From an uncultured Bacteroidales bacterium (GTDB lineage Bacteria > Bacteroidota > Bacteroidia > Bacteroidales > UBA10428), in contig CAWGCR010000001.1 of the NCBI GenBank assembly GCA_963821135.1, positions 145,547 through 209,546 on the forward strand: a stretch of DNA of 64,000 nt. The letters are read 5' to 3'. Below, in pieces: positions 24,978 to 58,677 of this stretch (its first letter is position 1; each line of letters opens with the position of its first letter). The translations under genes were made by a program, and so were the position numbers. The notes under the pieces were generated by a model. It ran no database searches. It worked only from the letters and a program-made list of their open reading frames with translations, and was not told the DNA's origin.

Positions 24978-24990
24978 AAGCAGGATTTAA

Positions 24991-25942: not shown

Positions 25943-26297
25943 ATATACAATTTGTTATTAAAAAGTTAATCTGTAACTTGCTGGAAGATTATTACTTCTC
26001 AATAACAGGATTGTTTCCAACCTGTTGACTCACTTATCTTTTCTCAGAAAATGAATGTACAAAATATCTGATTTTCAGTTTATAATTTAAGTAGATAATT
26101 ATTTAATAGTAAAAGGAAGACTATTATGAAATTCAAAACTGTGATGATTATTAAAGCCATAATCTGTTTAGGCTTTGGCCCTTTGCTGTTGTTTGTACCC
26201 GGTTGGTTGCTAAGTATACTGGGCTCATCATTTGGTCCGGGAGCTGCTCTGACAGCAAGGGAATATGGTGCAGTACTCATTGGAAATCTCTACTCAT
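25943..26297 (+). repeat. Left copy of the ~350-bp direct repeat bounding the PUL island
   Basis: Aligns by eye with 57982-58337, from ATATACAATTTG to GGAAATCTC(T)TACTCA, with roughly 20 differences. Confidence 0.95.
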
Positions 26298-26299
26298 AA
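26126..26299 (+). pseudogene. 3'-truncated copy (57 codons) of the membrane-protein gene at 58167-58547
   Basis: MKFKTVMIIKAIICLGFGPLLLFVPGWLLSILGSSFGPGAALTAREYGAVLIGNLYS* matches the N-terminus of the intact 126-aa protein, then ends at the island junction. Confidence 0.85.
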
Positions 26300-26958
26300 A
26301 TCTTTTCTAATATGACCGTATAAATACTTTCTTCACCATGAGGAGCTACACACCTTATATGATTATCTTCTGTAAAATCAATTTTAGTAACCTTATCTTC
26401 GATTTCTGTATTTCCCCAAAATACTTTTGCTTCAGGAGATTCTCTAAGCGTGGATACTAACGATTGGCTGATATCCACTCCTTCCGGAACTCTGATTGTG
26501 ATTGTGAAATTTATTTTATCAAGGTATGTATAGAGTTTAGGTTCAGATACTTTAAAGGACAGGAGTCTTGACCTTGTATCGATTACTGTTATCGTTTTTT
26601 CGAAAATAGATCTGTTGGAGTCTTGTCCCCAGTTTCCATAACTTGAACATATACAAGTAACTGTATAGGTTCCCCCGACGTAATATTTATATATGTACGT
26701 TGCTTCTGTCACTTCTACACCTGTGTCATCTGGGAAATTTTTATATTCATGACCTGGATGACCCATATATAGGGTTGTCATTTCTCCTTTTCCACTAAAT
26801 TCAAGCGTTAGCGGTGAGCCTGCTAAATAGGGCTCCTCATTTGCTATTGTAAAATGAGCGTCGACTTCAATGGGTTCTTCCTTTACACATCCTGTGAAAA
26901 GGAGTATACAAGCTGAAATTATTGTCGAACTTATATAAAGACTTTTTTTAACATTCAT
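26290..26958 (-). CDS. Surface lipoprotein (DUF5017/DUF5018-like; probable glycan-binding partner of SusC/D)
   Basis: Lipobox FTGC; FSGKGE...YMGHPGHEY and DFTEDNHIRCVAPHG...YTV segments; directly downstream of susD. Confidence 0.6.
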   Translation of the reverse strand: MNVKKSLYISSTIISACILLFTGCVKEEPIEVDAHFTIANEEPYLAGSPLTLEFSGKGEMTTLYMGHPGHEYKNFPDDTGVEVTEATYIYKYYVGGTYTVTCICSSYGNWGQDSNRSIFEKTITVIDTRSRLLSFKVSEPKLYTYLDKINFTITIRVPEGVDISQSLVSTLRESPEAKVFWGNTEIEDKVTKIDFTEDNHIRCVAPHGEESIYTVILEKIYE

Positions 26959-26996
26959 GTCTGTTTATTTTAAAAGTTAATACTTCCAATAAGGCA

Positions 26997-28595
26997 TTAC
27001 CAACCGGGATTTTGTTTCAATTTACCCTGCATTTTCGAAATTTCTGAAGTTGGAATTGGCAAATACTCATTTTTACCTTCAACAAAATATTTAATGTAAT
27101 CGGAAGGTTTAGGCCAATCGTCACCAATTTTCCCCCAGCGTACCAAGTCAAAATACCAGGTTCCTTCAAAACCGAATTCACAGGAGCGTTCATGCACGAT
27201 ATCCATAGGAGTCAACACTGTCAACGCTTCAAGGCCCGCTCTTTCTCTGACCTGATTAATTGCATTCAGGGCTAATGTAGTACTCCCGTTCACATGATAT
27301 TCAGCCTCAGCAAGCATTAATAAAACATCGGAATACCTGTACACTCTCCAGTCGTTTGGAGAATTCCAGGGTGCAGGTTCTTCTTCATGCATTGGATATA
27401 AATATTTTTTGATGCCAAAACCAGTATTTACAGCGGGCTCTAAATGACGGTCGGGATTAAACGGCACATAATATGTACTTTCCTTATTATTGGTAACTGT
27501 ATCGCCGGGAGAATAGATTGTGCAATATTTCCTGGGATCATACTTCAAACCGGCCGGATGATTTGGTGTTTCTTCAAATTCGTCAGCATATTCTACTGAA
27601 CAGGAGATATTTCCCCAGCCGTTTATTGAGATGTAATTATACAGTAAACCACCATCGCACATCCAACCCGGAAGATAATACGTTCTTACAAAATCAGTAT
27701 TTGCATATTGAATTGAAAAAATTGATTCGATATTGTTTTCGGCTTTATAGGTTCTGCCATTATTCGATAAGTCCATCGATGTGAAATTGCATTGATAGGC
27801 ATTTATATAGTCAGCAGAATCGTTTACTAGGGGCTTTGAGAGATCATATACTCCCAAATCGATAACTTTCTGACAGTATTCCTTGGCTTTTACCCATTTT
27901 TCATGATATAGATAGGTTTTTGCCATCAATGTTAAAGCGGCTCCTTTTGTAGCACGACCAATATTCGAATCGTCATATTCTTCGGGTAGTATGTCAATTG
28001 CTCCCGCAATATGATTACCTTTTTCATCATTATAGCCAATCAAATCTTTTTCAATTTGTTCTAAAAATTGTGGCCAGGTAGCATTTTCAAATACAGCCTG
28101 CATATCTAATATAACTTCATTTATCAGTGGAGGCTCATTAAATGTTGTATGTAAAATAAAATTGTACAACGATCGTGTGAATTTCATTTCAGCAATTAAT
28201 CTTTCACTTAGCTCTTCAGTTAATAAAGGATCCCTAATTTGTGGTATTTTATCCATTGCCAGATTGGATTTGGCAATCCCCCTGTATGCGTACCCGTAAA
28301 TAAACTTAACAAATTCATCTTCAGCGGGAAAAATTAATTCTTCGTAAACCGCATCTTCATAAACGCCCTGATCGTCCATCGCCATGAATAAAAAAATTAA
28401 GCGTAAACCATACAAGCCGTTTCCCTTCATGGCATCGTAGCCTGCAACTACTGCCTGATGTGCATGATCAACAGTAGTATAATAGGTGCTTTGGGAAATC
28501 GCATTTTTATTTTCTGCATCAAGAATATCCTCCGAACAGCTTACGGATACTAGTGAGAAAATAAAGCCCAAAATATAAAATTTATTTTTTTTCAT
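26997..28595 (-). CDS. SusD/RagB family lipoprotein
   Basis: Lipobox SVSC; AEMKFTRS, GRATKGAA, YRYSDVLLMLAEA, ERSCEFGFEG..YFDLVRW and QNPGW motifs. Confidence 0.92.
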   Translation of the reverse strand: MKKNKFYILGFIFSLVSVSCSEDILDAENKNAISQSTYYTTVDHAHQAVVAGYDAMKGNGLYGLRLIFLFMAMDDQGVYEDAVYEELIFPAEDEFVKFIYGYAYRGIAKSNLAMDKIPQIRDPLLTEELSERLIAEMKFTRSLYNFILHTTFNEPPLINEVILDMQAVFENATWPQFLEQIEKDLIGYNDEKGNHIAGAIDILPEEYDDSNIGRATKGAALTLMAKTYLYHEKWVKAKEYCQKVIDLGVYDLSKPLVNDSADYINAYQCNFTSMDLSNNGRTYKAENNIESIFSIQYANTDFVRTYYLPGWMCDGGLLYNYISINGWGNISCSVEYADEFEETPNHPAGLKYDPRKYCTIYSPGDTVTNNKESTYYVPFNPDRHLEPAVNTGFGIKKYLYPMHEEEPAPWNSPNDWRVYRYSDVLLMLAEAEYHVNGSTTLALNAINQVRERAGLEALTVLTPMDIVHERSCEFGFEGTWYFDLVRWGKIGDDWPKPSDYIKYFVEGKNEYLPIPTSEISKMQGKLKQNPGW

Positions 28596-28618
28596 ATTGG
28601 TAATTTTAATGTCTGTTT

Positions 28619-31807: not shown

Positions 31808-31834
31808 GATTCAATAGGTGTTGTATAGTTACTA

Positions 31835-32272
31835 TTATGTTTTTGTATCTGAATTTATCCTGAGAAGAATATGTAATGTCAGGAGTTGTATCCATAAATC
31901 CGTCATACTATTAGCAGAGTGCTGAAAGTTTTTGGAATCGTCTTTATCAGAATTAATCTTGTTGTTGCCTGCAGAACAGTAAGGATTCTTAACAGGGATT
32001 AATCTGCCATCTTTTACCAGAAAAGGTATTTGCAGGTGTCCGGCATACCAATCCGTTTTCATTCTACATTGCCAATAAATATTGGTGCCCTCATAACCTT
32101 CCCCTACTCCTTGAGCAGGAATAATAGACCTGGGAAGGGCATTCCATTCTTCAAGAGAACATCCACTATCCATAAAAGTATGAGATTGTTTTTGAGTATT
32201 TGAAAACGAATTAAAAAACAATGAAGTCTTACGGGTAAAAAGTACAGACAATGTGCTGGTTGGTTTTTTCAT
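31835..32272 (-). CDS. Hypothetical protein (145 aa from ATG 32272)
   Basis: Fills the gap between a predicted ECF promoter and susC; the core CSLEEWNALPRSIIPAQGVGEGYEGTNIYWQCRMKTDWYAGHLQIPF looks protein-like. No family recognised. Confidence 0.5.
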   Translation of the reverse strand: MKKPTSTLSVLFTRKTSLFFNSFSNTQKQSHTFMDSGCSLEEWNALPRSIIPAQGVGEGYEGTNIYWQCRMKTDWYAGHLQIPFLVKDGRLIPVKNPYCSAGNNKINSDKDDSKNFQHSANSMTDLWIQLLTLHILLRINSDTKT

Positions 32273-32292
32273 TGCTATTGTATTCCTCAACA

Positions 32293-32325
32293 ATAAAAAA
32301 ACAGCCTTACCAATTTTTACCCTAC
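32293..32325 (-). promoter_or_regulatory. Putative ECF-sigma promoter (GTAGGGTA-N13-CTGTT), copy A
   Basis: Minus strand GTAGGGTA-AAAATTGGTAAGG-CTGTTTTTTTAT, upstream of the hypothetical-susC-susD unit. Confidence 0.75.
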
Positions 32326-32350
32326 CTACCCTTCATTATTAATTATGACT

Positions 32351-35300
32351 TTATTTATCATGGAAGCTAATGTATCTGCCTGTTCTTGGTTCAACAGGAA
32401 TGGTAAGGGCAACCCATCCGGATCCAATGTCCTTTAATGGAAATGTTTCTCCAGTGGCAAGATCATAAGCTAATTTGCTTGGGCGGTGCAATTTCACTTT
32501 ATATTCTTGGATTAAGTCTTGTTTTACATGACTGTACAATAATAAATAGTCTTTATTGTTTCGTTTTACCAAAGCTTTGTATATGTTTAGCTGGTCACTC
32601 ACAATCTCTTGTGGTGACAGATTAAGTGATTTAACCATTCGCACAAGCGTATGATTTCCTATTCGACCCTGTTCAAAATAATTCAATTTACCATCGAATG
32701 AATCCTCCTCATTATCCCATCCAGCTAATAAGATTGCCCCTTTGCCAAACGGCTTTCTTACAAGAATTGGATCACTATTTTCATCGGTTAAAAGAACCTC
32801 TCCATCGGAAATAACTGAAACGGCATTACCTGTCATGATACCTCCGCCAAAGTTTTCAGGAAAATTAACCTTCCTCATTTTTCGTTCTCCGTATTTAACA
32901 TCCTGAAGTTCCATTACTTCACGCAAGAATGTAATAGGAATAGCGGTTCTTCCTTCCACACAAGTATTTGGGAATACAACAATGCTTAATCCTTTTTCCA
33001 CACTTTCGCGTAAAAGCCAATACCAGTGCTCATCGACAGGAAGAAGTGAACCGCCTGTTGTATTAGTGCCGACATTTGCGATTAACTCATCGTTTGGTAA
33101 TACAAGTAGATCATAGCATGAAAAATCAAATCGATGAGCATGACCTAAAAGATCTGCCCGCTGGTCCATACGCACGGCGACCTGGCTTAGCGATTGATAA
33201 TCATTCCAGTTAACCAGATCGATTACCGCAATTTTTGCCGGAGTTTGCTCGGCACCCATTATTGTGCGTCTGATAAATCCAACCTTTGCTATCCCTTCAG
33301 GATCAGCAGAAAGATCAGGTGCCGGAATTGAAAAATAATCGGAATTGTACCGAAGTGAGCCAAATAATGCATCATCAAATTCCTTGTATCCTCCACCCAC
33401 TTGCCAGGGTTCTCCTCCCCATTCGGGACCGGAGTTATGCAGTTCGGTGTATTTATGTTCAAACTTTTTTTCTTCATTCCAGTGTCTGGCTTTAACATCA
33501 TACCAGCTTGCCGATAAATCGGAAATGGAACCTAAGCCATGACCGGGTAAATCTTTTGGAACTTTTTTCGGTGCATTCTTTGCACATATTGCAGCTACTT
33601 TCTGCATTCCGTTTTGCACACTCCATCTCCTGAAATCCAAATATATACGCCAGGATTCAGCTTCTTCAATATAAGGAACTGGTATATCTTCCCAATTATT
33701 GAAATTTTTACCATATACTAATGATATTTCTTCAAGACTATAATTCATATGGTTTCTTAAATACCTGGAAAATGCTGCACGCTCGTATTCAGAATAATCG
33801 AATAAATGAGGTGGATTTACATAATAATAGTATCCATACGGAAAATCAGAATTACCAAAATCCAGAACAAACTTGGACAGGTTACTGTTGTCAGCGAACT
33901 GTTTGGTAAATGCATCAATCATTCCAAAGTAATGTTTCCTATAGAAGGGACTCCAAAGTGTAGGATGAAATCCTTTGTTTCCATCCCTATCAATTGCCGG
34001 TTCCTTTAGTGTCCACCAGGGAACTCCGCCATCGCCCAGTCCTGAGCCTCTTGTTGTGGCAAACATCCAGAATGCCACCTGTATATTTTCTTCTCTGGCG
34101 AAATCCAATATATCACTCGGAATGCGCCAGTCATATACTCCTGGTTCGGGCTCAACATCTTCCCAGGGGATATTTGCCCGTGTATATTGAAAACCTAATT
34201 TTTTCATCTGCCTGCTAAAATATTTATAAGATTCAGGTACTTCAGGCTTCTGAAATGCCCAATAGGTTGAATAGCCAAAACCAGAGAATTCAGCAGCATC
34301 ATCAGGTAAAATATACTCTTTTGCTGTGGCCAGGATTGAAGATTCTCCATTAATATCAGCAGTAAGCTCGTAATTGTAGTATCCAAAAGTACCCGGAGAT
34401 TCAAGTTCTGCAACAAGCATTGTTTGTTTCGCCGGTATTTCGAGATCCTCCAATCCGAATAGTTCCCTGTTTGTCTGCAGGTCTTTCAATCGGATATTGC
34501 TTATTTTTTTCTCCTTCCGGGAAAGGTTGCGGAACCGAATAATAATCTTGTCGTTGGTGTTCCTTTTATGTACAGGAGTAATGTCAATTGCTCCTGCTAT
34601 TTCCGGTGTATTGTGGATCCATGCTGCCAAATGTTTTATGAGTGAGTCGCAACCATTCCAGTCTCTTGTTAGCATTCCCGGATCTCCTGTCCAATCCATT
34701 TGGTAAGCTCCGTCAACATTCTCACGGGGTTCTCCTCCATTAAATCCATAAACGCAAAGTCGTGCACCAAAAAATTTATTGCATTTTCTTTCTACAGCGA
34801 TAACTGCGGATAAAGCCCAGGCATCAGAATTATTTTTGATAAGATTATGGGTAACATCCGGGGGGTAGGCAGTAACTCTGACTACAGGGATGGAACGACC
34901 ATCAAAATAAGCTAAATCAGGCAGTGTCTCCAATATTTCAATTCCCTTTTCTGTCAAGCCTTCAACCTGCATTGCGTCTCCTGCTCTGGTCAGATAAAAC
35001 TCTGATGACTGCATATTCCGCAAAGGGTACCATTTATCCTTATTTGGAAGATCACCAATAAAAAACAATCCTCCGCCTTCTTCATGAAACTGAATCATTT
35101 TCTGTAAGGCCAATTCAGAAAAATTGCCTTTTATATAGGGAATAATAAGTAGCCTGGTTTCAGGATACTCTAACGTTTCAAGTTGTTTATGATTTATTGT
35201 TGTGCATGAAATTTTCTGTGTCTCAAATAAATGAATCACATCAACAGCATTATATTCAGGCATTGCTGTGAAATCTTCATCTTGAAAAATCCTAATGTCC

Positions 35301-35377
35301 GGAGTTTGAGCATAGAACTGAAATGAAATTAATCCCAGTAAAAAAATACTTGCAATTATTTTTTGTTTCAGATTCAT
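32351..35377 (-). CDS. Exported glycoside hydrolase, GH42/GH-A-like TIM barrel with GATase-like flanking domains
   Basis: Signal peptide from ATG 35377 (MNLKQKIIASIFLLG); YTRANIPWEDVEPEPGVYDW, VPWW, PTLWSPFYR, FDYSEY and WRIYLDFR motifs; C-terminal trimerisation-like region. Confidence 0.65.
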   Translation of the reverse strand: MNLKQKIIASIFLLGLISFQFYAQTPDIRIFQDEDFTAMPEYNAVDVIHLFETQKISCTTINHKQLETLEYPETRLLIIPYIKGNFSELALQKMIQFHEEGGGLFFIGDLPNKDKWYPLRNMQSSEFYLTRAGDAMQVEGLTEKGIEILETLPDLAYFDGRSIPVVRVTAYPPDVTHNLIKNNSDAWALSAVIAVERKCNKFFGARLCVYGFNGGEPRENVDGAYQMDWTGDPGMLTRDWNGCDSLIKHLAAWIHNTPEIAGAIDITPVHKRNTNDKIIIRFRNLSRKEKKISNIRLKDLQTNRELFGLEDLEIPAKQTMLVAELESPGTFGYYNYELTADINGESSILATAKEYILPDDAAEFSGFGYSTYWAFQKPEVPESYKYFSRQMKKLGFQYTRANIPWEDVEPEPGVYDWRIPSDILDFAREENIQVAFWMFATTRGSGLGDGGVPWWTLKEPAIDRDGNKGFHPTLWSPFYRKHYFGMIDAFTKQFADNSNLSKFVLDFGNSDFPYGYYYYVNPPHLFDYSEYERAAFSRYLRNHMNYSLEEISLVYGKNFNNWEDIPVPYIEEAESWRIYLDFRRWSVQNGMQKVAAICAKNAPKKVPKDLPGHGLGSISDLSASWYDVKARHWNEEKKFEHKYTELHNSGPEWGGEPWQVGGGYKEFDDALFGSLRYNSDYFSIPAPDLSADPEGIAKVGFIRRTIMGAEQTPAKIAVIDLVNWNDYQSLSQVAVRMDQRADLLGHAHRFDFSCYDLLVLPNDELIANVGTNTTGGSLLPVDEHWYWLLRESVEKGLSIVVFPNTCVEGRTAIPITFLREVMELQDVKYGERKMRKVNFPENFGGGIMTGNAVSVISDGEVLLTDENSDPILVRKPFGKGAILLAGWDNEEDSFDGKLNYFEQGRIGNHTLVRMVKSLNLSPQEIVSDQLNIYKALVKRNNKDYLLLYSHVKQDLIQEYKVKLHRPSKLAYDLATGETFPLKDIGSGWVALTIPVEPRTGRYISFHDK

Positions 35378-35432
35378 TTTTAGGTGGATTTTTGGAAGAT
35401 TTAAATGAGAATATCTAATGTTCGTGTTCAAC

Positions 35433-37763
35433 TTATGGCAAATCCATAACATTATCTTTATCAATGATATCTACAAACATTCCCCATCCGCCACCAAACT
35501 GATTAACCTTTACCAGTACTTTATTTTTACCCTGCCTGAAAGTTGTAATAAGAATGTCTTGTCCTCTCACAGAGCCTCGTGCTTCGTTATGGCGGTAAAT
35601 CTCTTTTCCATTTATCCAGATCACAATTCCGTCATCGCTACCAACAAGTATTGGAACTTCACATTTTGTATTCGCCTGGATTTCGCAGTATGCATATACA
35701 ACTCCCTCTTTATTCCTGTCAAACATATTCGCGAAATTCATTTCTTCTCCATCGACAACCGAAGTTTTTACCCATTTTATGTTTTCCCCGTAAGAATTCT
35801 TATATGTGGCACTAAGATTTACTTTTTCTTCAGGTGCATATTTTCTGAAAAAACCTTCATCATTAGGATTATCGAACACTCCAGCGATGTACCAGTTACG
35901 AATCATACCTCCACCTGTTATACCCAGATCGGGCAAAGCAAGAAGATTGTGCCTCAATACTGAACGCTCTTTAATAGGTAAATTATCCAACTCCTTAATC
36001 CACTCTTTCCATTGGGAGAAGTCGTTAAGAAGAAACCGGATTGGGTAGTACCGAATATCTTCTTTCTGGAGCAATAATTTTTGAACATTATTCGAAACTG
36101 ATGGTAGTGAATCACCTTTACTAATTGTTTCGCAGAATTGGTTGATAATACTATTTGTATATTGACTGTTCTTGAAGTATTCAATAAAAGATAATCCGTC
36201 AGATGATGTGTTTTTATCACCCTTACTATCAAGTATTGATAGATAGAGAGCCTCTTCCAGATTAAATGAAATTCGAGTATTTTTAAATCCAGCAGGTGAA
36301 TAGGGCTCTTTCCAAATAATGGTGTCAATGGCTTGTATCTCAAATTCTAAATCGGGGAACTGGCCTGCAAAAGATTCATTAATCATGCCGCTTAGATGTA
36401 CTTTTAGATCTTCGCCGATTTCTATTTTCTCGCTTATTTGGACTTTGTCAATCGACCAATTATTCGAGATGCACCTTAATTTAGCTTCAACAGATAGATT
36501 AAATGTGGTGGGAATTGAGAGGGCGAAATTAAAACTGAACCCGTCTTTATTCTTTTGAACGGATGACATCTTAAAACTCCGTTTCAATTTTTCTTCCAGT
36601 ATAAGCATATCAAATGCATAAAATTCATCGGTGCCTGAGTAAGAGCCTTTATTTAAAATGAAGGAATCAAATACTTTTCCATCAACATCAATTGCTTTAC
36701 CAATCATTTGATTGTTGTTAAATTCCAATTCTGTGAAATGGTGAATGGTTCGTCGGTAAGCCGTATATTCTTTTGATTCTGTTGGATATAGCGGGGCTCC
36801 ACCACCTGCTGAAATGATATAAGTAACACCGATAGGATCTTTTTGGGCTTTTCCGATGGGGAAGCTCCGGGAATAATAGTGGTCATCGCCACTAATCACT
36901 AAGTCAACATTGTATTTTTGAAACAATGGATGCCATTGCCATCGTAAATCATTTACATACCAGTCAGGGCGGGAACTAAATAAGGGATGATGGAACATAA
37001 CTATGATCCATTGCGCGTTCTTATTATTCTCCAGGTCATTCAATAACCATGTAAATTGATCAGAATCGTCAGGCTGATTGCTGTCTAAACCTATGATATG
37101 AACAGGCCCGTAATCGGTTGACCACCAGGCCTCATTGTTATTGAGAGAATAAAAATTATAATAATAAATGCAATTTCTTTCATGATTACCCAGAACAGTT
37201 AATATTGGAATTTCAGGACAAAATGGTTTTACGGGATCGAAAAATTGAGGTTTCCACGATTCCTGGTCGGCCCCATACATAACAAAATCGCCTGAATGAA
37301 GTACTAAATCGGGTTTAGATAATGCTATTTGCCGAGCTACTTTTGCATGATCAGGCGGATGACTTCTTGTGTCCCCATAAGCGACGATTTTTACTTTGCT
37401 TACACCCTGTGGAGGTGCAGTGCGAAACTGATAAACAGGCGTTTGCTCATTGTCCCACTTGCATTGGTAAAAATACGTCTTTCCTGCCTGGAGATTCGAT
37501 ATTTTTAGCTCATGAATTTTAACTGCTTTAATTTCTTCTACTTTATGTATCAATTTTCCACTGTCTTCTCCAAATTCAATATAGGCTTTTGTTTCAGAAC
37601 TTGTTTCCCACATAATTATGATGCTGTTTTGGGTAACATTCTGCAGGTAGGGTCCAAGCCAAAGCGCATTTTTTTTGTCCTGACTTTTTATACCATTTGT
37701 AGGAGAGCTAATTGCTAAAAGGCAGGTTGAAACTATGAAGGAAAGGATAAATAAATATCTCAT
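35433..37763 (-). CDS. Purple acid phosphatase-like metallophosphoesterase with an N-terminal FN3-like and a C-terminal PA14-like domain
   Basis: GPYLQ...WET...HELKISNLQAGKTYFY; YGD, GDFV, GNHE, FHHP and SGDDHYYSR metal motifs; C-terminal WYIAGVF...YAYCEI...GSDDGIVIWING...GKNKVLVKV. Confidence 0.8.
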   Translation of the reverse strand: MRYLFILSFIVSTCLLAISSPTNGIKSQDKKNALWLGPYLQNVTQNSIIIMWETSSETKAYIEFGEDSGKLIHKVEEIKAVKIHELKISNLQAGKTYFYQCKWDNEQTPVYQFRTAPPQGVSKVKIVAYGDTRSHPPDHAKVARQIALSKPDLVLHSGDFVMYGADQESWKPQFFDPVKPFCPEIPILTVLGNHERNCIYYYNFYSLNNNEAWWSTDYGPVHIIGLDSNQPDDSDQFTWLLNDLENNKNAQWIIVMFHHPLFSSRPDWYVNDLRWQWHPLFQKYNVDLVISGDDHYYSRSFPIGKAQKDPIGVTYIISAGGGAPLYPTESKEYTAYRRTIHHFTELEFNNNQMIGKAIDVDGKVFDSFILNKGSYSGTDEFYAFDMLILEEKLKRSFKMSSVQKNKDGFSFNFALSIPTTFNLSVEAKLRCISNNWSIDKVQISEKIEIGEDLKVHLSGMINESFAGQFPDLEFEIQAIDTIIWKEPYSPAGFKNTRISFNLEEALYLSILDSKGDKNTSSDGLSFIEYFKNSQYTNSIINQFCETISKGDSLPSVSNNVQKLLLQKEDIRYYPIRFLLNDFSQWKEWIKELDNLPIKERSVLRHNLLALPDLGITGGGMIRNWYIAGVFDNPNDEGFFRKYAPEEKVNLSATYKNSYGENIKWVKTSVVDGEEMNFANMFDRNKEGVVYAYCEIQANTKCEVPILVGSDDGIVIWINGKEIYRHNEARGSVRGQDILITTFRQGKNKVLVKVNQFGGGWGMFVDIIDKDNVMDLP

Positions 37764-37866
37764 CTTCTTCTTTTTTAAGTGTTTAACAAATACTCAATTG
37801 ATCCAAAAGAATTTAACTATTCAAAAATTTGCTCACCTTTTAGAGCTTCTTGTGTAATTATTGATC

Positions 37867-39870: not shown

Positions 39871-39904
39871 GGCTAGATTGTTCTTAAAATTTCTCTTTTC
39901 GTTT

Positions 39905-39937
39905 ATTAAAAAACAGGATTGAAGGATTATACCCTAC
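39905..39937 (-). promoter_or_regulatory. Putative ECF-sigma promoter, copy B
   Basis: Minus strand GTAGGGTA-TAATCCTTCAATC-CTGTTTTTTAAT, about 35 nt before ATG 39870. Confidence 0.75.
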
Positions 39938-40079
39938 TTGATTTGTAAAGAAATGCATCATCTATTTTTATTGATTATTGTTCAGTTGATCGATTTTTTG
40001 TATCGTTTGTAAAATAGGTCAAAAACAGGTGGAGCTTTCGTTGACGATTACTGGTTTGATTGAAAAATGACCAAAATTC

Positions 40080-41969: not shown

Positions 41970-42002
41970 AATATATCATTAAGTCTGTTTTCCCATTGAT
42001 TA

Positions 42003-42827: not shown

Positions 42828-42926
42828 AATCAAATAGTTATACCGGTGATTCTTTGGAACTACAAATAGAAGGAAGAGTTCAGTTAATCAGTATTTAATA
42901 TGGAATTGTGAATTAGGTTTCACAAC

Positions 42927-45900: not shown

Positions 45901-46625
45901 GAAAAGTCACATTCCCAGATGTCACTGCCATGCCAACCAATGTTGGAAAAACTTGTGTTTTCCAATTGTAATTCACTTCTTAATTGTACACTCTTTCCAT
46001 AATCAGCACTAGAATAGACTATACTGTTATCAGAATTTCGAAGCAGGTAAAAGTTATTCCCTTCACAGGAAGAGAAATCAGTTCCACCGTCTGTACCCAT
46101 CCATTGATAGATATAGGCATACTTCATCCCTGCATTTGGGGCATAACCTACCTGGTTAATATGAATCGATTCGGAACGAAGATTTCTTGTGTTAAAAGTG
46201 AAAGTTTCAGAACTTCTGTTTGAGGCCAGGTCTCCCCAGCTAAGTGTATATGTTTTGTCTTCTGTTAGCTCATCAGGCAATTGCAGGTATACCCAATATG
46301 ACATGAGGGAACCTTCAATCTTGGCTTTATAGCTTATACTACTTGGATTTATCGACGTTGTATAATTCGGATCATCCGTGCTGGTTATAGTATAAGTAGC
46401 TGTGTTTTTTGCAGAAGCCTCATTAATAGGGCCTGAGTTCCAAATATCAGGGCAGATTGAGGATGTAAATTCGTGACACTCAGCAAAATTTTTCTCACCT
46501 TCCCGAAAATGCAACAATAAATAGTCTCCTTTTACAGGCGACACAAAAATTATATCGGCTGCTAGCAATCCATTAAAGAACAAAGTTAAAATGCCGAGCA
46601 ATAAAGCAAAAAATTTAGTTTTCAT
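42927..46625 (-). CDS. Modular GH9-like glycoside hydrolase (Ig-GH9-Ig-FN3-CBM6-like-Big_2) with a T9SS sorting domain
   Basis: IHINQVGY, LYHQRSG, GGYFDAADCDRR, DEAQWGIDF, ADFYLGVN and D-x8-E; FN3 WDPSTDD; CBM6-like IPGRIEAEDYD...TGGW...NINW; Big_2 WSSSNELVAIV; CTD IYPNP...SGVYFV...KLIV. Confidence 0.8.
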   Translation of the reverse strand: MKTKFFALLLGILTLFFNGLLAADIIFVSPVKGDYLLLHFREGEKNFAECHEFTSSICPDIWNSGPINEASAKNTATYTITSTDDPNYTTSINPSSISYKAKIEGSLMSYWVYLQLPDELTEDKTYTLSWGDLASNRSSETFTFNTRNLRSESIHINQVGYAPNAGMKYAYIYQWMGTDGGTDFSSCEGNNFYLLRNSDNSIVYSSADYGKSVQLRSELQLENTSFSNIGWHGSDIWECDFSEIGITVNIAPGEYRIAVEGIGCSFPFRIDKDVYTDLAYLLTRGLYHQRSGPERTTEHTPFVKPVDHTPGVNNFKVTYSTHLYQGDDGINFDQLPATATEWIWPDNPHPHMNDESDGWGWGGYFDAADCDRRRTHMQVSTDLMLIYEMHPDRFQDGELNIPESGNGYPDILDEAQWGIDFYRRLKGPTGGICGGLETTGYYHPSWEDDHMWYAYGEEAITTWQFSGLAAQLAYCLELAGAEQAVIDDWVQESEDAYSWAETASPGNEGKEYIVQKYYAAASLYRITGNHQYIDDFNECIFWYNDLQKEKGSFVFCLTPSDRWANFTTEDKNLQNSLKSRIENQALTEGTDQARERALRYIRRSNWGVSWGGYYPHVMLQMVHHHLSDDEEILDYLFATADFYLGVNNDQQVSISGAESVNAERSFRDMLNLESTYDDVPGWIPGIPPFKHTNTVYDPNYFKEPADPHDWPLMEQCNDIRYYVPAGEYTVYETISPMASLFSYLKSLSSGKQMLVQIDSPGKDTVFIPGADVAVLVSASTYEGTISRVELYSGSIMVGEDDTSPYEFILDTVPAGVYNISALAYNEGETKKSKTVLVVVDDKNPSVPGNLHVTNTERLAISIAWDPSTDDAEVKEYEVYVNDSIWRTSILNYCTIEDLMADSRYEIYVKAIDYAGYTSEASNVLDTLTLSGKDIPGRIEAEDYDAVVGEVQVDDAQDTDGTDYVGWFDEQESLEYAVKVEHSDYYLATFRVARGMDAGEFELISGTSVLDTISIPNTGGWVEWINVISVIPLEEGQQSLIIKNTGNPFNINWIDFEAAVLTEGVVIGNCPVDSLEVGTSYNLTAEVSPDSASNQNVSWSSSNELVAIVSSDGVVTAQSVGNTEITVTTDDGDFEDICTISVFANPILVYNKALSHFIIYPNPIEGGPLNLKGEVLKNAIISLKDLNGRVVLSKINAGNNEEFSLPTDNLNSGVYFVNIINHEACVTRKLIVR

Positions 46626-46671
46626 AATAATTTCTTTAAAATTGTAATAGATTCTGAAGCTTTAAATCTAT

Positions 46672-48969
46672 CTACTCACTAATTCTCGGTTGTGCCCCCA
46701 TTTCAAATATCAATTGCCCACCATTAATTATCGCTTCATGGGCAATCGTTTGACCTATGTGGATTTTCCCGTTCAAGCATATAGACTGGATATAAAAATT
46801 CTCTTCTGAATTATTTTTACTTTCAATAATAAACTCATCCGCCGGGTAATAATCAGGATCCAGTTTTAGTGTTATTTTATCAAATATGGGACTCCCAATC
46901 TGGTATTCTGAACTTCCCGGACAGGCAGGATAAAATCCCATGGCAGAAAAAATATACCAGGCAGATAATGTTCCGCAGTCATCATTGCCGGGTAATCCGC
47001 CCGGACTTGTATTGAAATATTTTTCCATAGCTTTTCTGACCTCTTTTTGTGTTCTCCAGCCTTCTCCTTCAAAATAGTCAAACAAATAGGGGTAAGCCAT
47101 ATCGGGCTCATTAAAAAGCATAAACCTTCCGGGGTAATCGAAACACGACTGAAGTTTATCAACAAAATTTGCATTCCCCATAAGATTTGCTAATCCTTGT
47201 ATGTCATGAGGTACAAAAAAATTGTATTGCCATGCATTTCCTTCTACATAACCAGGGCCTCCACTTTCCCAGTCTCCCGGTAAACTTCCACGTAAAGTAT
47301 CGATACTAAAATTTTCTATAATTGAACCATCCTTGTTCTTGGGAACTAAAAAGCTACTTTTCTCATCGTAAATTATTTTATACCCCATTGATTTTGAATA
47401 AAATCTTTTATAGTCTTCATCTTTCCCAAGAGACTTTGCTAGTTGTGCAATACACCAATCGGCATAATTGTATTCCAGAGTTGTTGCTGTAACTCCCCAG
47501 CATTCTGCAGCTTCTTTATGATCAAAGGGGATATAACCATATTCATTATAAGCACCATTACCTTGTCTGATCAGATTGTTTTCTGTTAAATCTGAGGATT
47601 TTACCATAGCTTCATACGCACTCTGTACATCAAAATCCTGCAATCCTTTTATATAGGTATCGGTAATTACCGGGCAGGATGGATCTCCTACCATAACATT
47701 AGACTCATTCCCTGTTATTTCCCATTTTGGTAAGTATCCACTTGTTTTGTACATATCTACCATTGTTTTAACCATTTCCAGTTGACGGTCAGGATAAAGC
47801 AGCGTTAATAGGGAATGTAAATTCCTGTAGGTATCCCATAAGGAATAAAGTGTATAATAATTCTTTCGGTCCTTCCCCAGTGTTTTTATTTCATTTGATC
47901 CCAAAGCAATATATTCACCGTTTACATCATTAAAAACATTTGGATGTAATAAGGCATGATAAAGAGCTGTGTAAAAAATTTTCTTTTGATCCTCTGTACC
48001 CCCTTCAACCTTTATTTTCGAAAGTTCTTCTTCCCAGGCCATTTTGGCCTTATTTTTCATTTCTTCGAAATCCCAGCCAGGCTGTTCAATATTGAGGTTT
48101 TCCCTGGCATTTTCTATACTGATATATGAAATGCCTGTTTTCATTAATATTGGATCATCCGGCCCGGCTCTAAATCTCGCATAAGAACCTGAGTGTTTAC
48201 CCGACAATGTGTCTTGTTTAGAGTAAACATCCACATTATTATATGTGCCATAGGTATAAAAGGATTTATTAAAACGAGCAACAAAATGAACTTTCTGGAT
48301 TGTTTCTCTATTACAAAAGCACCCGCTCAAGCACCAACCTTCAATTTCTGTGTCAGAAACAATCCTAACCTGTGCATCGGTTGCAGCAATAAGGCTGTGA
48401 TATAAATCAATAAGGATATTTGCAGAATCTGTAGTTTCCTCAAAAACATATTTACTTAATGTCGTTCTTTTTGTTACTGTTGATTCTATTTGAATTGACG
48501 GATCTTTTAGTGATACTCCGTAATAACCCGGAGATGCTATTTCCTCCTTATAACCGGATTTGTTCCTTATAAAATCAGAATAAATCTCTCCGGTTGTTGG
48601 CATTACCAATACATTTCCCAATCCGGGACATCCGGATCCGCTAATTAATACATGACCAAAACCATAAATGAATTCTTCACCAAATTTGTACCCGGTAGGA
48701 AGTTCTGTTAAAACCTCAGACCCACAATAAACATCTGTTTTGTCCATTAAATTTCTTGGCGCAAATGTTACCATTCCCCAGGGTACTAAGGCCCCCGGAT
48801 GTACACTTCCGCTGATGAAATGTGACATCATCCCTTCCGTTTCGCTGGCATTTCCGGTGCCAATAAAGGGATCTACCCAGGAAGTCAGATTCGGGGAGTT
48901 ATCTTTTTCAATGTGATTACAAGCAAATAAGAAATAAGTTAGAAGTATTATGGCGGACAGGTTTCTCAT
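46672..48969 (-). CDS. GH92 alpha-mannosidase (lipoprotein)
   Basis: VDPFIGT, PGALVPWGM, FYTALYH, SLWDTYR, MVGDPS, YVEGNAWQY, NEPD and GNDDCGTLSAWY motifs. Confidence 0.92.
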   Translation of the reverse strand: MRNLSAIILLTYFLFACNHIEKDNSPNLTSWVDPFIGTGNASETEGMMSHFISGSVHPGALVPWGMVTFAPRNLMDKTDVYCGSEVLTELPTGYKFGEEFIYGFGHVLISGSGCPGLGNVLVMPTTGEIYSDFIRNKSGYKEEIASPGYYGVSLKDPSIQIESTVTKRTTLSKYVFEETTDSANILIDLYHSLIAATDAQVRIVSDTEIEGWCLSGCFCNRETIQKVHFVARFNKSFYTYGTYNNVDVYSKQDTLSGKHSGSYARFRAGPDDPILMKTGISYISIENARENLNIEQPGWDFEEMKNKAKMAWEEELSKIKVEGGTEDQKKIFYTALYHALLHPNVFNDVNGEYIALGSNEIKTLGKDRKNYYTLYSLWDTYRNLHSLLTLLYPDRQLEMVKTMVDMYKTSGYLPKWEITGNESNVMVGDPSCPVITDTYIKGLQDFDVQSAYEAMVKSSDLTENNLIRQGNGAYNEYGYIPFDHKEAAECWGVTATTLEYNYADWCIAQLAKSLGKDEDYKRFYSKSMGYKIIYDEKSSFLVPKNKDGSIIENFSIDTLRGSLPGDWESGGPGYVEGNAWQYNFFVPHDIQGLANLMGNANFVDKLQSCFDYPGRFMLFNEPDMAYPYLFDYFEGEGWRTQKEVRKAMEKYFNTSPGGLPGNDDCGTLSAWYIFSAMGFYPACPGSSEYQIGSPIFDKITLKLDPDYYPADEFIIESKNNSEENFYIQSICLNGKIHIGQTIAHEAIINGGQLIFEMGAQPRISE

Positions 48970-48972
48970 ATT

Positions 48973-50535
48973 TTAGTATTGGATTTTATTTTTACCTGTT
49001 TCGATTTGAAAAACTGAAATGCTGTCATTCTTATGTACCTTCAGTTGGAAAGGTTTTTCGGCAGTAACCTCAAGGAAAATTTCATCTGAGGTAAATTCTC
49101 TTCTCTGACAGATCAGGGTTATGGTATTCTCCTCCATGACAATATTTTCGATACCATGTTTATCGGTACGTTGAATATACCAGTTTACTGTATTATTTAT
49201 GGCATCCAACCGAATACCTATTATATTTTCAATAAGCATGGCAGTGGGGCCAATTCCCGTAAATCCTACAAAATCCGGTTTAGCATGATTTCCCTGTGAG
49301 AGCGAATCCGGAGCATAGTTTTCCCATACAGTGTTGGTTTTATTGAATACGGCATACATTCCATCGAGGTATTTTTTAGTGGCCTGATATGCGAATTCAT
49401 CCTTGTTGTATTTTTCAAGACCTTTTATCACCATATAGTTTACCAATGACCATACGCCCCCAATCCAGTAGTTTCCCATGGGATCGTAGAAATGGTGATC
49501 GGCAGACAAAGTAGGGAAGGGTATGGTTCTCCAAAAAGTTGTACTATCCATTAAATTTTCTGTTAGCTTATCAGCTTGTTCAGAGGAACAAATACCAGCC
49601 AGCATAGGCCAAAATGATGCTATGGTTTTTATCTTTACCTGATTCCCCTGATCATCAACATCGTAGTACATGCCATCCTTGTGGTTCCACAACCAAAAAT
49701 TTATTTTCTCGGACACCTCGTTTGATTTGTGGGCATATTTATTTGCCTTTTCAATTTGACCTGTTTTTTCGCATATTTTAGACATATAGTGGTAATAAAG
49801 AGTCATTTGTGATGACATACAGATCCAGCCTGAGCCCGAGCGCGGAACATTGTCCATGCCGCTTCCTAAAGGAGAATTCCAGTAGAGATCGTGAGCAGTA
49901 CCCGATTTATGGCGACCTATATTGATCCATTCGGCATATTTTTCCAGGGCGGGAAGAATGGTAGCAAATCTTGAATAATCGCCTGTAATTTTATAGTATT
50001 CCCATTCAACCCAGGGATATAAAGGAGGATTGCAGGAATTGTATTTCCCTTCATAATAGTATTCACCTCCATCAATTTCACTGATTTCTCGACAGATATA
50101 TCCATTGGGATGTTGAAAACGATAAAAATTATCGTGTGATTGAATAGAAGGAAAAACGTGATGCAGGTATTTCCAAAAAAGAATCATAAAATGAGTATCC
50201 CATTGATACACATAATCACTAAAGGCTTCATCAATAAAGTCAGCAACCAGAGGAGATCCTTCCGGTGGTTTTTTGAGTTTCTTAAATGCTTCTTCCCAGC
50301 AAAACCAGTACATATCTATCCAGTCTTTATTATCCTCAAGTATTGGTACTGGAATTTGCGACTTGCTGCCTTCGAATGTTGGTAATGGAACGTTTCTACT
50401 CACATATTCTGATATCGGGAAATAGAGCCCCCTGTTTTCAGGTAAATCTCTCCCTATTTCAAATTCTTTTTGCGCTTGTGAATACAATATTGAAATGCTT
50501 AAGATGAATGTGAAAACCCACTTTCTATTCCTCAT
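48973..50535 (-). CDS. MGH1-like / GH63-related (alpha/alpha)6 glycoside hydrolase
   Basis: DEAFSDYVYQWDTHF, NPPLYPWVEW, GSGMDN, YWIGGVW and VWENY motifs; signal peptide. Confidence 0.75.
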   Translation of the reverse strand: MRNRKWVFTFILSISILYSQAQKEFEIGRDLPENRGLYFPISEYVSRNVPLPTFEGSKSQIPVPILEDNKDWIDMYWFCWEEAFKKLKKPPEGSPLVADFIDEAFSDYVYQWDTHFMILFWKYLHHVFPSIQSHDNFYRFQHPNGYICREISEIDGGEYYYEGKYNSCNPPLYPWVEWEYYKITGDYSRFATILPALEKYAEWINIGRHKSGTAHDLYWNSPLGSGMDNVPRSGSGWICMSSQMTLYYHYMSKICEKTGQIEKANKYAHKSNEVSEKINFWLWNHKDGMYYDVDDQGNQVKIKTIASFWPMLAGICSSEQADKLTENLMDSTTFWRTIPFPTLSADHHFYDPMGNYWIGGVWSLVNYMVIKGLEKYNKDEFAYQATKKYLDGMYAVFNKTNTVWENYAPDSLSQGNHAKPDFVGFTGIGPTAMLIENIIGIRLDAINNTVNWYIQRTDKHGIENIVMEENTITLICQRREFTSDEIFLEVTAEKPFQLKVHKNDSISVFQIETGKNKIQY

Positions 50536-50617
50536 ATTATTGATTATTAGCAGTTAATATGTGTTTTTAGCTATTGTATTCAGAAATACTGAGTTGATGT
50601 TTCAAATGGTTTAACTA

Positions 50618-50649
50618 ATTAATAACAGGACAATAATACTTTACCCTAC
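50618..50649 (-). promoter_or_regulatory. Putative ECF-sigma promoter, copy C
   Basis: Minus strand GTAGGGTA-AAGTATTATTGTC-CTGTTATTAAT, upstream of ATG 50535. Confidence 0.75.
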
Positions 50650-50773
50650 CTTTTGTAGCAGGGTATCACTGATTTACTTGAAGAGGATCTGATTATTTAG
50701 TTGTGCTGCTGAGTTTATTGGCGGGAAAACAATAGAAACTATATTTCAAGGGCGAAGAACAAAATTAGTTCTA

Positions 50774-52333: not shown

Positions 52334-52355
52334 CCGTGACGTAAATTTCAATTCC

Positions 52356-55835: not shown

Positions 55836-55997
55836 GAAATGATGAACTATATGTTACAAAGGCTGGTTGAAAAAGGTAAGTAAGACAAATTCCTAAATAC
55901 CTAAAAACATAAAGCTCTATGGGACCTAAAAGTAACAAAAAAATCTACATACCAAGAATTCAGGTATAAAATGGAGCTTGCATGATTGAATAGAGCA

Positions 55998-57038: not shown

Positions 57039-57052
57039 ATTTTCCTTTCTCA

Positions 57053-57085
57053 ATTAAAAAACAGGATAAAAGGATTTTACCCTAC
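57053..57085 (-). promoter_or_regulatory. Putative ECF-sigma promoter, copy D
   Basis: Minus strand GTAGGGTA-AAATCCTTTTATC-CTGTTTTTTAAT, between the sigma and fecR genes. Confidence 0.78.
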
Positions 57086-57138
57086 CAATAACAAACTTTT
57101 ATATATAAAACGCTCATTTCTAATGATACCAACATCAG

Positions 57139-57738
57139 CTAATAGTTATCCGGAAAAATAAATAATAAAAATACGGGTAGATATTCTTTCAAGGCAATTC
57201 TTAACCTCGTTAAGGCAACAGAAATGTGTTTTTCTACAGCTTTCACCGAAATGTTGAGTTTTTCTGCAACCTCCCTGTTTTTCAATCCTTCTGATCGGCT
57301 TAATCTAAATACTTCTCTGCATTTTTCAGGTAAAGCATTAATGTTTATTTCTATTTTACCGGATAGTTCTTTTTCGAAAATACTACCTGATTCGCCTCCT
57401 AAGGAATTAAGAAAACATAAATTTTCAGAACGTTGTTTATTCGCGGCATGTTCTATGTGTTTATTCTTAACTCTTTGATGTTCAATATAATTTAGGCTTT
57501 TATTTCGAACCGAACGAAATAAATAGACATTCACCAAACCCAACATCTCTATTTCACCTCTGCGTTCCCATAAATTTGTAAACACATCCTGTACAATATC
57601 TTCAGCCGCATTCACATCTCTGACAAAACTTAAAGCATATCCATGTAATCCATTGTAATATGTTTTGAAAATAATTTCAAAAGCATCCTTCTTACCTTGT
57701 TTTAATTTTTGGACTATTTTATGGTCAGGTTTGTACAT
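57139..57738 (-). CDS. ECF-type RNA polymerase sigma-70 factor (Bacteroides expansion family)
   Basis: AFEIIFKTYY, AEDIVQDVF, YLFRSVRNKSLN and LPEKCREVFRLSR.EGLKNREVAEKLNISVKAVEKHI motifs. Confidence 0.93.
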   Translation of the reverse strand: MYKPDHKIVQKLKQGKKDAFEIIFKTYYNGLHGYALSFVRDVNAAEDIVQDVFTNLWERRGEIEMLGLVNVYLFRSVRNKSLNYIEHQRVKNKHIEHAANKQRSENLCFLNSLGGESGSIFEKELSGKIEININALPEKCREVFRLSRSEGLKNREVAEKLNISVKAVEKHISVALTRLRIALKEYLPVFLLFIFPDNY

Positions 57739-57981
57739 AGCAAAAGGTACAGATAAAGATCTATGAGTACAGCATAAATAGTAAAATTATCTGATCATTT
57801 GTAACAAAAATATAAATTTTTAGGATCCTTTGGAAAATCTGACTCTTGCAGCAAAAAATATGGAGCCCAATATAATTAGATTGTATGATAGGAGAGGAAA
57901 TTTCTGGAGATGAAAAGAACATTTTATCTTTAAGAAGTAACTAATACTGACCTGCCAACTAAAACCAGGACCATACACAGT

Positions 57982-58337
57982 ATATACAATTTGATATTAA
58001 AAAGTTAATCTGTAACTTGCTGGAAGAATAATGCTTTCTCAATAACAGGATTGGTTCCAACCTGTTGACTCACTTATCTTTTCTCAGAAAATGAATGTAC
58101 AAAATATCTGATTCTCAGTTATTAAATTTAAGTAGATAATTATTTACTATTAAAAGGAGGACTATTATGAAATTCAAAACTGTGATGATTATTAAAGCCA
58201 TAATCTGTTTGGGCTTTGGCCCTTTGCTGTTGTTTGTACCCGGTTGGTTGCTGGGTATACTGGGCTCATCATTTTGTCCGGGAGCTGCTCTGACAGCAAG
58301 GGAATATGGTGCAGCACTCATCGGAAATCTCTTACTC
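57982..58337 (+). repeat. Right copy of the ~350-bp direct repeat
   Basis: Matches 25943-26297; contains the upstream region and 5' half of the intact 126-aa gene. Confidence 0.95.
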
Positions 58338-58547: not shown

Positions 58548-58677
58548 ACTGGTCTATTTTTAGAAGGAGTACTATATTTAGAAATAAATTTCCAGTAAGC
58601 ATCTGACATTGGAAACTGTTGCATGCAATGGATTGTTATGTCTTGTCCTTAAATAGAGTAACCAAATAATATTGAAT

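Follow-up and report, generated by a model that had tools for sequence, protein, structure and literature searches.

The window, a 64,000-nt stretch from an uncultured Bacteroidales bacterium, contains a minus-strand glycan-utilization locus (PUL) lying between two direct repeats. The features of this region are listed below in window coordinates.

17171..23223, plus strand: conserved left anchor, ilvD-ilvB-ilvN-ilvC-rhomboid
23444..25596, plus strand: lineage-specific left flank with an FGE-sulfatase-domain protein, a short epimerase-like protein and a GNAT acetyltransferase
25943..26296, plus strand: left direct repeat, 183 nt of upstream DNA and the truncated 5' part of a membrane-protein gene
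26126..26299, plus strand: stub open reading frame (ORF), 57 membrane-gene codons followed by TAA, overlapping the convergent stop of the last PUL gene
26290..26958, minus strand: last PUL gene, 222 aa, without a Pfam family, its stop codon inside the left repeat
26997-28595, minus strand: SusD-like protein of pair 1 (SusD_RagB, 4.2e-40)
28619-31807, minus strand: SusC-like TonB-dependent transporter of pair 1 (Plug and CarboxypepD_reg)
31835..50535, minus strand: enzyme block, by domain assignment a 152-aa unknown protein, a GH42-like protein (1037 aa), a metallophosphoesterase/purple-acid-phosphatase-N protein (776 aa), a 667-aa protein, an apiosidase-like protein (629 aa), an FGE-sulfatase-domain protein (276 aa), a 1232-aa CBM6/Ig/FN3/T9SS-tail protein, GH92 (5e-163) and a GH63/MGH1-like protein
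50774-52351, minus strand: SusD-like protein of pair 2
52356-55835, minus strand: SusC-like protein of pair 2 (SusC 2), with an STN signalling domain (7e-12)
55998-57053, minus strand: FecR-type anti-sigma factor (FecR and FecR_C)
57139-57738, minus strand: ECF sigma factor (Sigma70_r2/r4)
57053..57085, 39905-39937 and 32293-32325, minus strand: three copies of a 33-nt motif, each just upstream of a minus-strand gene
57982..58338, plus strand: right direct repeat, 185 nt of upstream DNA and codons 1-57 of the intact gene
58167..58547, plus strand: intact membrane-protein gene, 126 aa (precomputed family PF26941.1)
58672..60839, plus strand: right flank with an S51 peptidase (cyanophycinase-like), MarR and YceI

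All 16 ORFs between the repeats lie on the minus strand and are of PUL type, no unassigned gap exceeds 428 nt, and none of the 16 encodes a recombinase or transposase domain. The earlier note's description of the whole interval as one minus-strand PUL with its own sigma/anti-sigma pair and no recombinase was therefore borne out. The locus has the hallmarks of a PUL, two adjacent SusC/SusD pairs with linked glycan-degrading enzymes, and the presence of GH92 and a GH63-like enzyme suggests that its substrate is probably mannose-rich. The components of ECF-sigma/anti-sigma control are also present, namely, the sigma factor, the FecR anti-sigma factor and the STN domain on SusC 2; an STN domain on SusC marks trans-envelope signalling to an anti-sigma factor. 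The 33-nt motif has no further occurrence in the 5.69-Mb genome, even when up to 7 substitutions are allowed, and is a candidate ECF-dependent promoter that may tie both SusC/D halves together. Five of the 76 other family genomes encode distant homologs of the last PUL gene, ∼220 aa in length, indicating that the gene is about full length. The FGE-domain proteins of the left flank and the PUL are 34% identical, and the apiosidase-like protein of the PUL is 24% identical to one encoded at C1:211 kb (contig C1). Such distant paralog similarity indicates that PUL genes have not recently been copied as a segment.

Local alignment pairs the left repeat (354 nt) with the right repeat (357 nt) in the same orientation, with 338 of 353 aligned columns identical (95.8%), and a global difference map resolves 15 substitutions and 5 indel columns. 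The two copies share identical blocks of 59 (the longest), 51, 41, 39 and 33 nt. Homology stops abruptly at either side. The left copy carries a single-nucleotide deletion 6 nt short of the homology end, and its final 7 nt contain the stop of the last PUL gene (26290-26292). The stub keeps its ATG at 26126 and ends at a TAA at 26297-26299. The earlier note had claimed repeats of about 350 bp around 32 kb, 94 to 95% identical by eye, with the membrane gene truncated on the left and intact on the right. Alignment and ORF reading agree with this; the repeats do include coding sequence as stated, but it spans 57 codons rather than ∼55. A BLAST search of the whole 5.69-Mb assembly with the left repeat located it in exactly two places, its own position and that of the right repeat (94% with gaps, E value of 3.5e−155). 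The repeat is therefore neither a chance match nor a dispersed multicopy element, the refuting possibility that the note had raised. Among 14 low-copy direct pairs in which both members share a contig, only this one brackets the PUL.

The membrane protein has 845 homologs, the nearest of which are 95% and 92% identical and lie on short metagenome contigs. The stub and the intact gene differ at residues 30 (S versus G), 37 (G versus C) and 50 (V versus A). Any two of the stub, the intact gene and the nearest foreign allele (P0002) differ at 3 positions within residues 1 to 55, so that the two copies are as distant from one another as alleles of different strains. They nevertheless share a derived I31, and each is the other's closest relative. 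Outgroup polarization assigned four derived changes to the intact copy versus two and one indel to the stub, from only 6 usable coding differences, which are too few to choose between models of origin. On these counts, the stub shows no excess decay.

Mobility genes were sought in and around the locus. No transfer or mobilization gene occurs among the 16 ORFs, no tRNA or insertion sequence (IS) was found in the window, and the borders lack terminal inverted repeats, IS remnants and Rfam families. No tyrosine recombinase is encoded within 57 kb, the nearest PF00589 match being at C1:114321, ∼57 kb from the left repeat. CTnDOT-type TraJ was not found in the genome; by this single marker, in a genome that is 89.6% complete, there is thus no sign of a route for conjugative delivery. 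Tetranucleotide distances in 8-kb windows across the PUL fall between the 16th and 94th genome percentiles, with the sigma/SusC 2 end mildly atypical (91st to 94th), and GC content is 0.33 to 0.43 versus 0.39 for the genome. The compositional profile proposed in the earlier note as a check thus revealed no step at either border and a PUL that is native-like. An integrative element or classical genomic island was rejected for lack of an integrase, a tRNA/att site, transfer genes or foreign composition. Repeats of 354 nt that are 95.8% identical and partly coding do not fit att sites, and short identical att repeats are absent. A composite transposon was also rejected, as the repeats are a gene fragment without a transposase and have only two genomic copies.

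The variable region that contains the PUL is lineage specific and lies downstream of ilvC-rhomboid. Synteny with genus relatives stops directly after these genes, and in all eight relatives with enough sequence, the genes that follow rhomboid have orthologs here on another contig, from C11:23005 onward. The GNAT gene was detected in none of the 24 other genus genomes at an E value of ≤1e−20, and an S51 peptidase of >70% identity was found in one of the 24, at a contig end with no MarR or YceI beside it. The membrane protein was searched for in 40 relatives, and the search was later extended to 76 family genomes; no orthologous locus was recovered, and homologs occur in 4 of the 76, at 50% identity or less. 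The best matches to the anti-sigma factor across the 76 family genomes were 34 to 40% identical, while GH92 reached at best 42% across all species genomes scanned, with no donor or syntenic PUL. The membrane protein identified 80 metagenome loci, none of which has a GNAT, S51, sigma, FecR or SusC/D neighbor. One of these loci (L041) has a metallophosphoesterase match at 25% identity, a weak paralog. An empty site was sought with the membrane protein, S51 peptidase, GNAT, anti-sigma factor and last PUL gene, and no orthologous locus was found with any of them. Together with the lack of conservation of the flanks (GNAT, membrane gene and S51), this means that there is no empty or filled site to compare.

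The architecture matches that of a single-crossover (Campbell-type) integrant, since a DNA circle that carries part of its target locus and integrates in this way yields exactly such an arrangement; the interpretation in the earlier note is partly supported. We tentatively favor, at somewhat less than even confidence, the reading that one recombination event placed the 32-kb ECF-sigma-controlled PUL beside the small membrane-protein gene and left the repeats as its scar. The PUL would have arrived on a DNA fragment of a close relative, along with the upstream region and codons 1 to 57 of that relative's own membrane gene. An illegitimate joining of the two fragment ends would have placed codon 57 against the 3' end of the last PUL gene. 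Integration of the resulting circle at the resident membrane-gene locus, by one RecA-dependent crossover, would account for the dead 5' stub at the left and the intact gene at the right. Most of the 4% difference between the copies would in that case be divergence that already existed between donor and recipient. Since PUL tetranucleotide distances lie within the genome range, any donor would have been compositionally similar, which fits the need for ∼96% homology, but native-like composition is equally expected of a locus that was never transferred. The donor must also have had the PUL beside the membrane gene, and none of the 80 metagenome loci does so, as judged by sigma, FecR, SusC and SusD. 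The Campbell-type entry proposed in the earlier note therefore stands as to architecture but not as to direction and route, as no donor, empty site or second PUL copy was found in the genomes and metagenomes searched.

That same native-like composition suits an origin in place, which we consider unlikely but by no means negligible. With the PUL already beside the membrane gene, everything between the 3' end of the last PUL gene and membrane-gene codon 57 would have been copied by a tandem duplication or a template switch during replication. A later deletion would have taken away nearly all of one copy except the 354-nt stub, and the 4% divergence would have arisen in place afterwards. The genome has other tandem segmental duplications (C10:65191-71545 versus 74153-80466, 90.5%; C11:456143-459447 versus 471127-474424, 99.8%), and the mutual closeness of stub and intact gene, with I31 in common, is expected of such an origin. 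However, two events are required, with one deletion endpoint 185 nt upstream of the start codon, and repeats around 32 kb must outlast RecA until they are 4% divergent. A neutral stub should also exceed the selected gene in derived changes, which the polarized counts, small as they are, do not show.

The earlier note had proposed that RecA recombination between the repeats could excise or amplify the PUL, making it an integrase-independent metabolic cassette. Taken as a recurrent way of moving a metabolic trait, by excision of a 32-kb circle, tandem amplification and RecA-mediated reintegration, this reading is one that we regard as improbable. A RecA gene is present, which with the identical blocks makes some recombination physically possible. 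Furthermore, a 413-nt public contig that spans the left junction (26015-26427) carries right-copy letters at 26212, 26213 and 26234 and could be a gene-conversion tract. The same mosaic can arise by bubble-popping in a k=31 assembly when copies share stretches of at least 31 nt. Divergence of 4% lowers RecA recombination in mismatch-repair-proficient cells, and frequent exchange would homogenize the copies, so this divergence argues against a cassette. Reversal of a Campbell integrant is itself textbook behavior rather than a new system. The PUL occurs once and in no other genome searched, and no joint, circle or deletion junction is present among the public contigs listed. With no such junction among those contigs, and no empty site, second PUL or compositional step at the borders, a cassette that excises, amplifies or moves gained no support. 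A related scenario seems to us highly improbable, in which the PUL is an integrase-free "Campbell cassette" that loops out by RecA recombination between the 354-nt repeats, passes among close relatives as a circle or conjugated DNA and reenters the membrane-gene locus through one crossover; the mosaic contig would then be a real conversion tract, a sign that the copies recombine in nature.

We give very little credence to an assembly artefact, in which the shared 354 nt would have served to join different strains into a chimeric contig, so that no single molecule has the bracket. The assembly is of the metagenome type (16 contigs, 89.6% complete, 3.9% contamination), and the public contigs, Logan contigs of 150 to 413 nt at depths of 2 to 5 from four runs in three studies, do not reach from the GNAT side across to the PUL side; most of them are shorter than the repeat. 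The best of these runs contains 0.26 of the sampled words. Against an artefact, an independent k-mer contig (run X1, possibly the source sample) crosses the stub-to-PUL junction and extends 131 nt into the PUL, and flank and PUL contigs at ∼100% identity co-occur in all four runs. Their depths are alike (∼2 to 5), but contig depth cannot measure copy number. Much harder repeats are also resolved in the assembly, among them an array of 231-nt units that spans 6.9 kb, and copies with 20 differences are easily separated. Neither a joint nor a loose end falls at 25943 or 26296 among the public-contig rows listed, which cover the left junction, leave out many more (12 joints, 494 loose ends, 667 pieces) and are not evidence of absence.

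Homology-facilitated illegitimate recombination reportedly features in a paper on T6SS effector displacement. Like that process as it is described in the available portion of PMC3240628, the favored single-crossover reading combines one homologous and one illegitimate joint and can leave gene stubs, but the classical process deletes recipient DNA (∼1 kb on average), while here there is a duplication. In the Escherichia coli conjugation experiment in the same excerpt, 56 of 60 integrants were explained by a re-circularized, end-degraded molecule and a single crossover, and single-crossover integrants duplicated 109 to 950 bp of the target locus (PMC3240628). The locus described here resembles those integrants in that the insert is bracketed by partial copies of the target locus with no site-specific recombinase, and its 354-nt duplication is within their size range. 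It differs in that the insert is 32 kb of natural chromosomal DNA rather than a plasmid construct of 2 kb, that the two copies have a 4% difference and that the event was deduced from a single genome rather than observed. With this experimental precedent (PMC3240628, as excerpted), the structure is of a known kind, contrary to its earlier billing as a candidate undescribed system, and it looks like an ordinary scar that reveals no new system or type of mobile element.

For PUL islands without mobile-element genes in Bacteroides ovatus and Bacteroides xylanisolvens, the portion of PMC8845570 consulted proposes that they are exchanged through Hfr-like conjugation, with homologous recombination in the core genes on either side. 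As in those islands, the whole PUL is lineage specific, lacks an integrase or transposase and lies just past core genes (ilvC-rhomboid here). In that portion, the islands involve a double crossover in two core genes with no duplication (PMC8845570), whereas our locus has a 354-nt duplication and non-core flanks, and with one marker, no chromosomal conjugative element was found here. The same text cites PULs borne on integrative and conjugative elements (ICEs) or plasmids, namely, porphyran, agarose and carrageenan loci, which are likewise PUL-sized cargo limited to some lineages (PMC8845570). Those carry integrase and conjugation genes, while the PUL described here has no integrase, att repeats, tRNA target or transfer genes.

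The PUL today would be a resident chromosomal locus and an ordinary SusC/D system, whose own sigma/anti-sigma pair would sense glycan via the STN domain of SusC 2. The repeats are predicted to be functionless, beyond making it physically possible for RecA to delete or duplicate the PUL on rare occasions. The practical value of the locus is modest: the stub would date and orient the event, and the repeat pair marks a site at which to seek PUL loss or duplication in salt-marsh and sediment populations. If the single-crossover reading is true, the locus is a clean natural case of a complete, self-regulated glycan-utilization locus entering a Bacteroidota chromosome without dedicated mobility genes, for which host homologous recombination and one illegitimate joint would suffice. 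This reading complements the double-crossover model for PUL islands of gut Bacteroides.

The polysaccharide utilization locus (PUL) in the window is bracketed by direct repeats of about 350 bp, which a local alignment confirmed as real: 25943-26296 and 57982-58338 agree in 338 of 353 aligned columns. A global difference map counted 15 substitutions and 5 indel columns between the two copies, which have in common identical blocks of up to 59, 51, 41, 39, and 33 nt. With the left copy as query, a BLAST search of the whole assembly (5,691,517 bases in 16 contigs, 89.6% complete) returned just the query itself and the right copy. This rules out a dispersed multicopy element, a reading that the earlier note had left open. 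The features at the two borders are as follows.

25943-26296: left copy; upstream DNA, ribosome-binding region, and ATG (26126) retained
57982-58338: right copy; 185 nt of upstream DNA and codons 1 to 57 of the intact ORF
58167-58547: intact membrane-protein ORF, 126 aa

The membrane-protein gene is indeed truncated on the left and intact on the right. The stub, as we call the truncated copy, has a reading frame of 57 codons that ends with TAA at 26297-26299. The left copy carries a 1-nt deletion 6 nt ahead of the end of homology, and the minus-strand gene that ends the cluster (26290-26958) is convergent with the stub, its stop codon lying within the final 7 nt of the left repeat.

All 16 ORFs between the repeats are on the minus strand, in the following order from right to left.

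Minus strand, 1: ECF sigma factor, FecR anti-sigma factor
Minus strand, 2: SusC with STN domain, SusD
Minus strand, 3: GH63/MGH1-like enzyme, GH92
Minus strand, 4: 1232-aa CBM6/Ig/FN3 protein with T9SS sorting tail
Minus strand, 5: FGE-sulfatase-domain protein, apiosidase-like enzyme
Minus strand, 6: 667-aa protein, metallophosphoesterase
Minus strand, 7: GH42-like 1037-aa protein, 152-aa protein
Minus strand, 8: second SusC, second SusD, 222-aa protein (leftmost)

None of the 16 contains a recombinase or transposase domain, in agreement with the earlier reading, and the largest stretch between the repeats with no assigned ORF is 428 nt. Eleven tyrosine-recombinase matches were found genome-wide, the nearest ~57 kb to the left of the left repeat. 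The window contains no tRNA genes, and its sole Rfam match, at 14003-14110, is a Bacteroidales-type small SRP RNA (103.7 bits), which along with the T9SS sorting domains assigns the organism to Bacteroidota.

A 33-nt motif, which reads GTAGGGTA..CCTGTTTTTTAAT on the coding strand, occurs three times within the PUL.

57053-57085, minus strand: just upstream of the anti-sigma gene
39905-39937, minus strand: just upstream of the 667-aa gene
32293-32325, minus strand: just upstream of the 152-aa gene, which heads the second SusC/D block (SusC 1)

No further copy was found in the rest of the 5.69-Mb genome with up to 7 substitutions allowed. We take the motif as a candidate promoter recognized by the ECF sigma factor of the PUL, and it supports the proposal of a single regulatory unit spanning the interval.

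The left junction was sought in public metagenomes. Parts of a 10-kb probe across it were present in 11 runs, at best 0.26 of the sampled words, from salt-marsh and sediment samples. Four runs from three studies were compared with window positions 18000-37999; all four gave contigs of 150 to 413 nt at depths of 2 to 5 and with 0 to 3 differences, on flank and PUL alike, and among the matches listed, neither joints nor loose ends fell on the repeat borders. A 413-nt contig from one of these public runs (X1) spans 26015-26427, crossing from the stub into 131 nt of PUL, and supports the junction, though X1 is possibly the sample of origin. This contig has right-copy letters only at 26212, 26213, and 26234 and left-copy letters elsewhere. 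The mosaic may be a gene-conversion tract between the repeats, but we give it no weight because bubble-popping in a k=31 assembly would look alike where the copies share stretches of at least 31 nt.

Relatives were searched for a donor, a second copy, or an empty site. The GNAT gene was found in none of the 24 other genomes of the genus, and the S51 peptidase was found at >70% identity in one of them, where its 4.5-kb contig has neither MarR nor YceI. Across 76 other genomes of the family, the membrane-protein gene was present in four (≤50% identity), the anti-sigma factor had best matches of 34 to 40% identity, and the last PUL gene matched in five (27 to 39%). The best GH92 identity in a scan of all species genomes was only 42%. 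The 126-aa membrane protein had no match in a Pfam scan; it is part of a large family (precomputed PF26941.1), with 845 homologs. Its nearest relatives, 95% and 92% identical, lie on contigs of ~1 kb. At 80 metagenome loci with a homolog, no other window gene was found, apart from one paralog match at 25% identity, and in the nearest loci upstream conservation extends only ~50 to 70 nt from the ATG. The protein (homologs P0002 to P0120) is strongly conserved, at ~80 to 87% identity in MAGs labeled Bacteroidetes, Bacteroidales, Acidobacteriota, and "bacterium," and its gene neighborhood differs in every case. This may be a frequently transferred small gene; alternatively, the taxon labels may be binning noise.

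To the left of the PUL lies a core block, ilvD-ilvB-ilvN-ilvC-rhomboid (17171-23223). Eleven of the 24 other genus genomes have ilvC at 88 to 91% identity, and the rhomboid gene follows it in 10 of these 11 loci, the contig of the eleventh ending before that point. None of the 11 contains the FGE-domain, epimerase-like, GNAT, membrane-protein, S51, or PUL genes. Eight loci extend far enough downstream, and in all of them the two genes beyond rhomboid have orthologs on another contig of the source genome (C11:23005-24584), and four of the eight are colinear on to ~36.5 kb (C11:23005-36552). Synteny thus breaks right after rhomboid (~23224-23443), so the whole region from 23.3 kb on is rearranged or lineage specific; the PUL accordingly sits in lineage-specific, rearranged surroundings, with noncore genes directly on either side. 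A small palindromic intergenic element with the core GTAGCATGCTACGCC, which looks like a REP-like dispersed repeat (~30 matches on four contigs, both strands counted), lies exactly at the break (23260-23301 and 23321-23362) and also at ~12181, 15957, and 16018.

The rest of the contig carrying the window (C1) and the start of C11 mix housekeeping with accessory genes (48 of 51 ORFs scanned). Near the C1 end (C1:240168-241427) and the C11 start (C11:5142-6458) are group II intron reverse transcriptase/maturase genes, a DDE transposase/IS lies at the C11 start (C11:68-1701), and a multicopy element of ~2 kb is also present on C1, C7, and C12; the contig breaks are probably due to these. Elsewhere, a tandem array of a 231-nt unit is resolved at C5:352003-358925 (~30 copies, ~99.6% identity), which suggests a long-read assembly. 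The tetranucleotide profile is without a step at the PUL borders: 8-kb windows across the PUL fall between the 16th and 94th percentiles of distance among 1400 genome windows, mild deviation being confined to the sigma/SusC 2 end.

How the two copies arose was considered from their differences. Within residues 1 to 55, any two of the stub, the intact gene, and P0002, the nearest foreign allele, differ at three positions, and the stub and intact gene have the derived residue I31 in common. Polarized with 14 outgroup sequences, the intact copy has four derived substitutions (two synonymous) and the stub has two (one synonymous) plus the terminal 1-nt deletion, with no excess decay of the stub. 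Divergence of two alleles while both were functional would fit slightly better than a long-dead stub, with numbers too small to decide.

If a 5' fragment of the membrane-gene locus were on a circle that crossed over once with the chromosome, the expected product would be foreign DNA preceded by a truncated copy, which keeps its native upstream DNA, and followed by an intact copy. The anatomy behind the Campbell-type entry proposed earlier, with the stub left and the intact gene right, is structurally sound; the entry itself is unproven. In E. coli conjugation, single crossover of a recircularized, end-degraded molecule gave rise to 56 of the 60 integrants, with duplication of 109 to 950 bp of the target (PMC3240628). 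Classical homology-facilitated illegitimate recombination, in contrast, pairs insertion with deletion. In Bacteroides, PUL islands that lack mobility genes are described and attributed to Hfr-like transfer and homologous recombination at flanking core genes (PMC8845570). On these precedents we tentatively prefer entry by single crossover, from a close relative, to duplication in situ followed by deletion, which appears less likely. A genome self-comparison found 14 low-copy direct pairs 3 to 150 kb apart on the same contig, this one included along with several tandem segmental duplications; the repeat-bracketed structure is a single case and not a recurring device.

Because the genome has RecA, recombination through the repeats could, physically, delete or duplicate the PUL on occasion. 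The 4% divergence between the copies argues against frequent exchange, and the suggestion of an integrase-independent cassette, excised or amplified as a unit, found no support. Nor did the suggestion that the locus is an undescribed system: excision, even if true, would only reverse a well-known kind of integrant.
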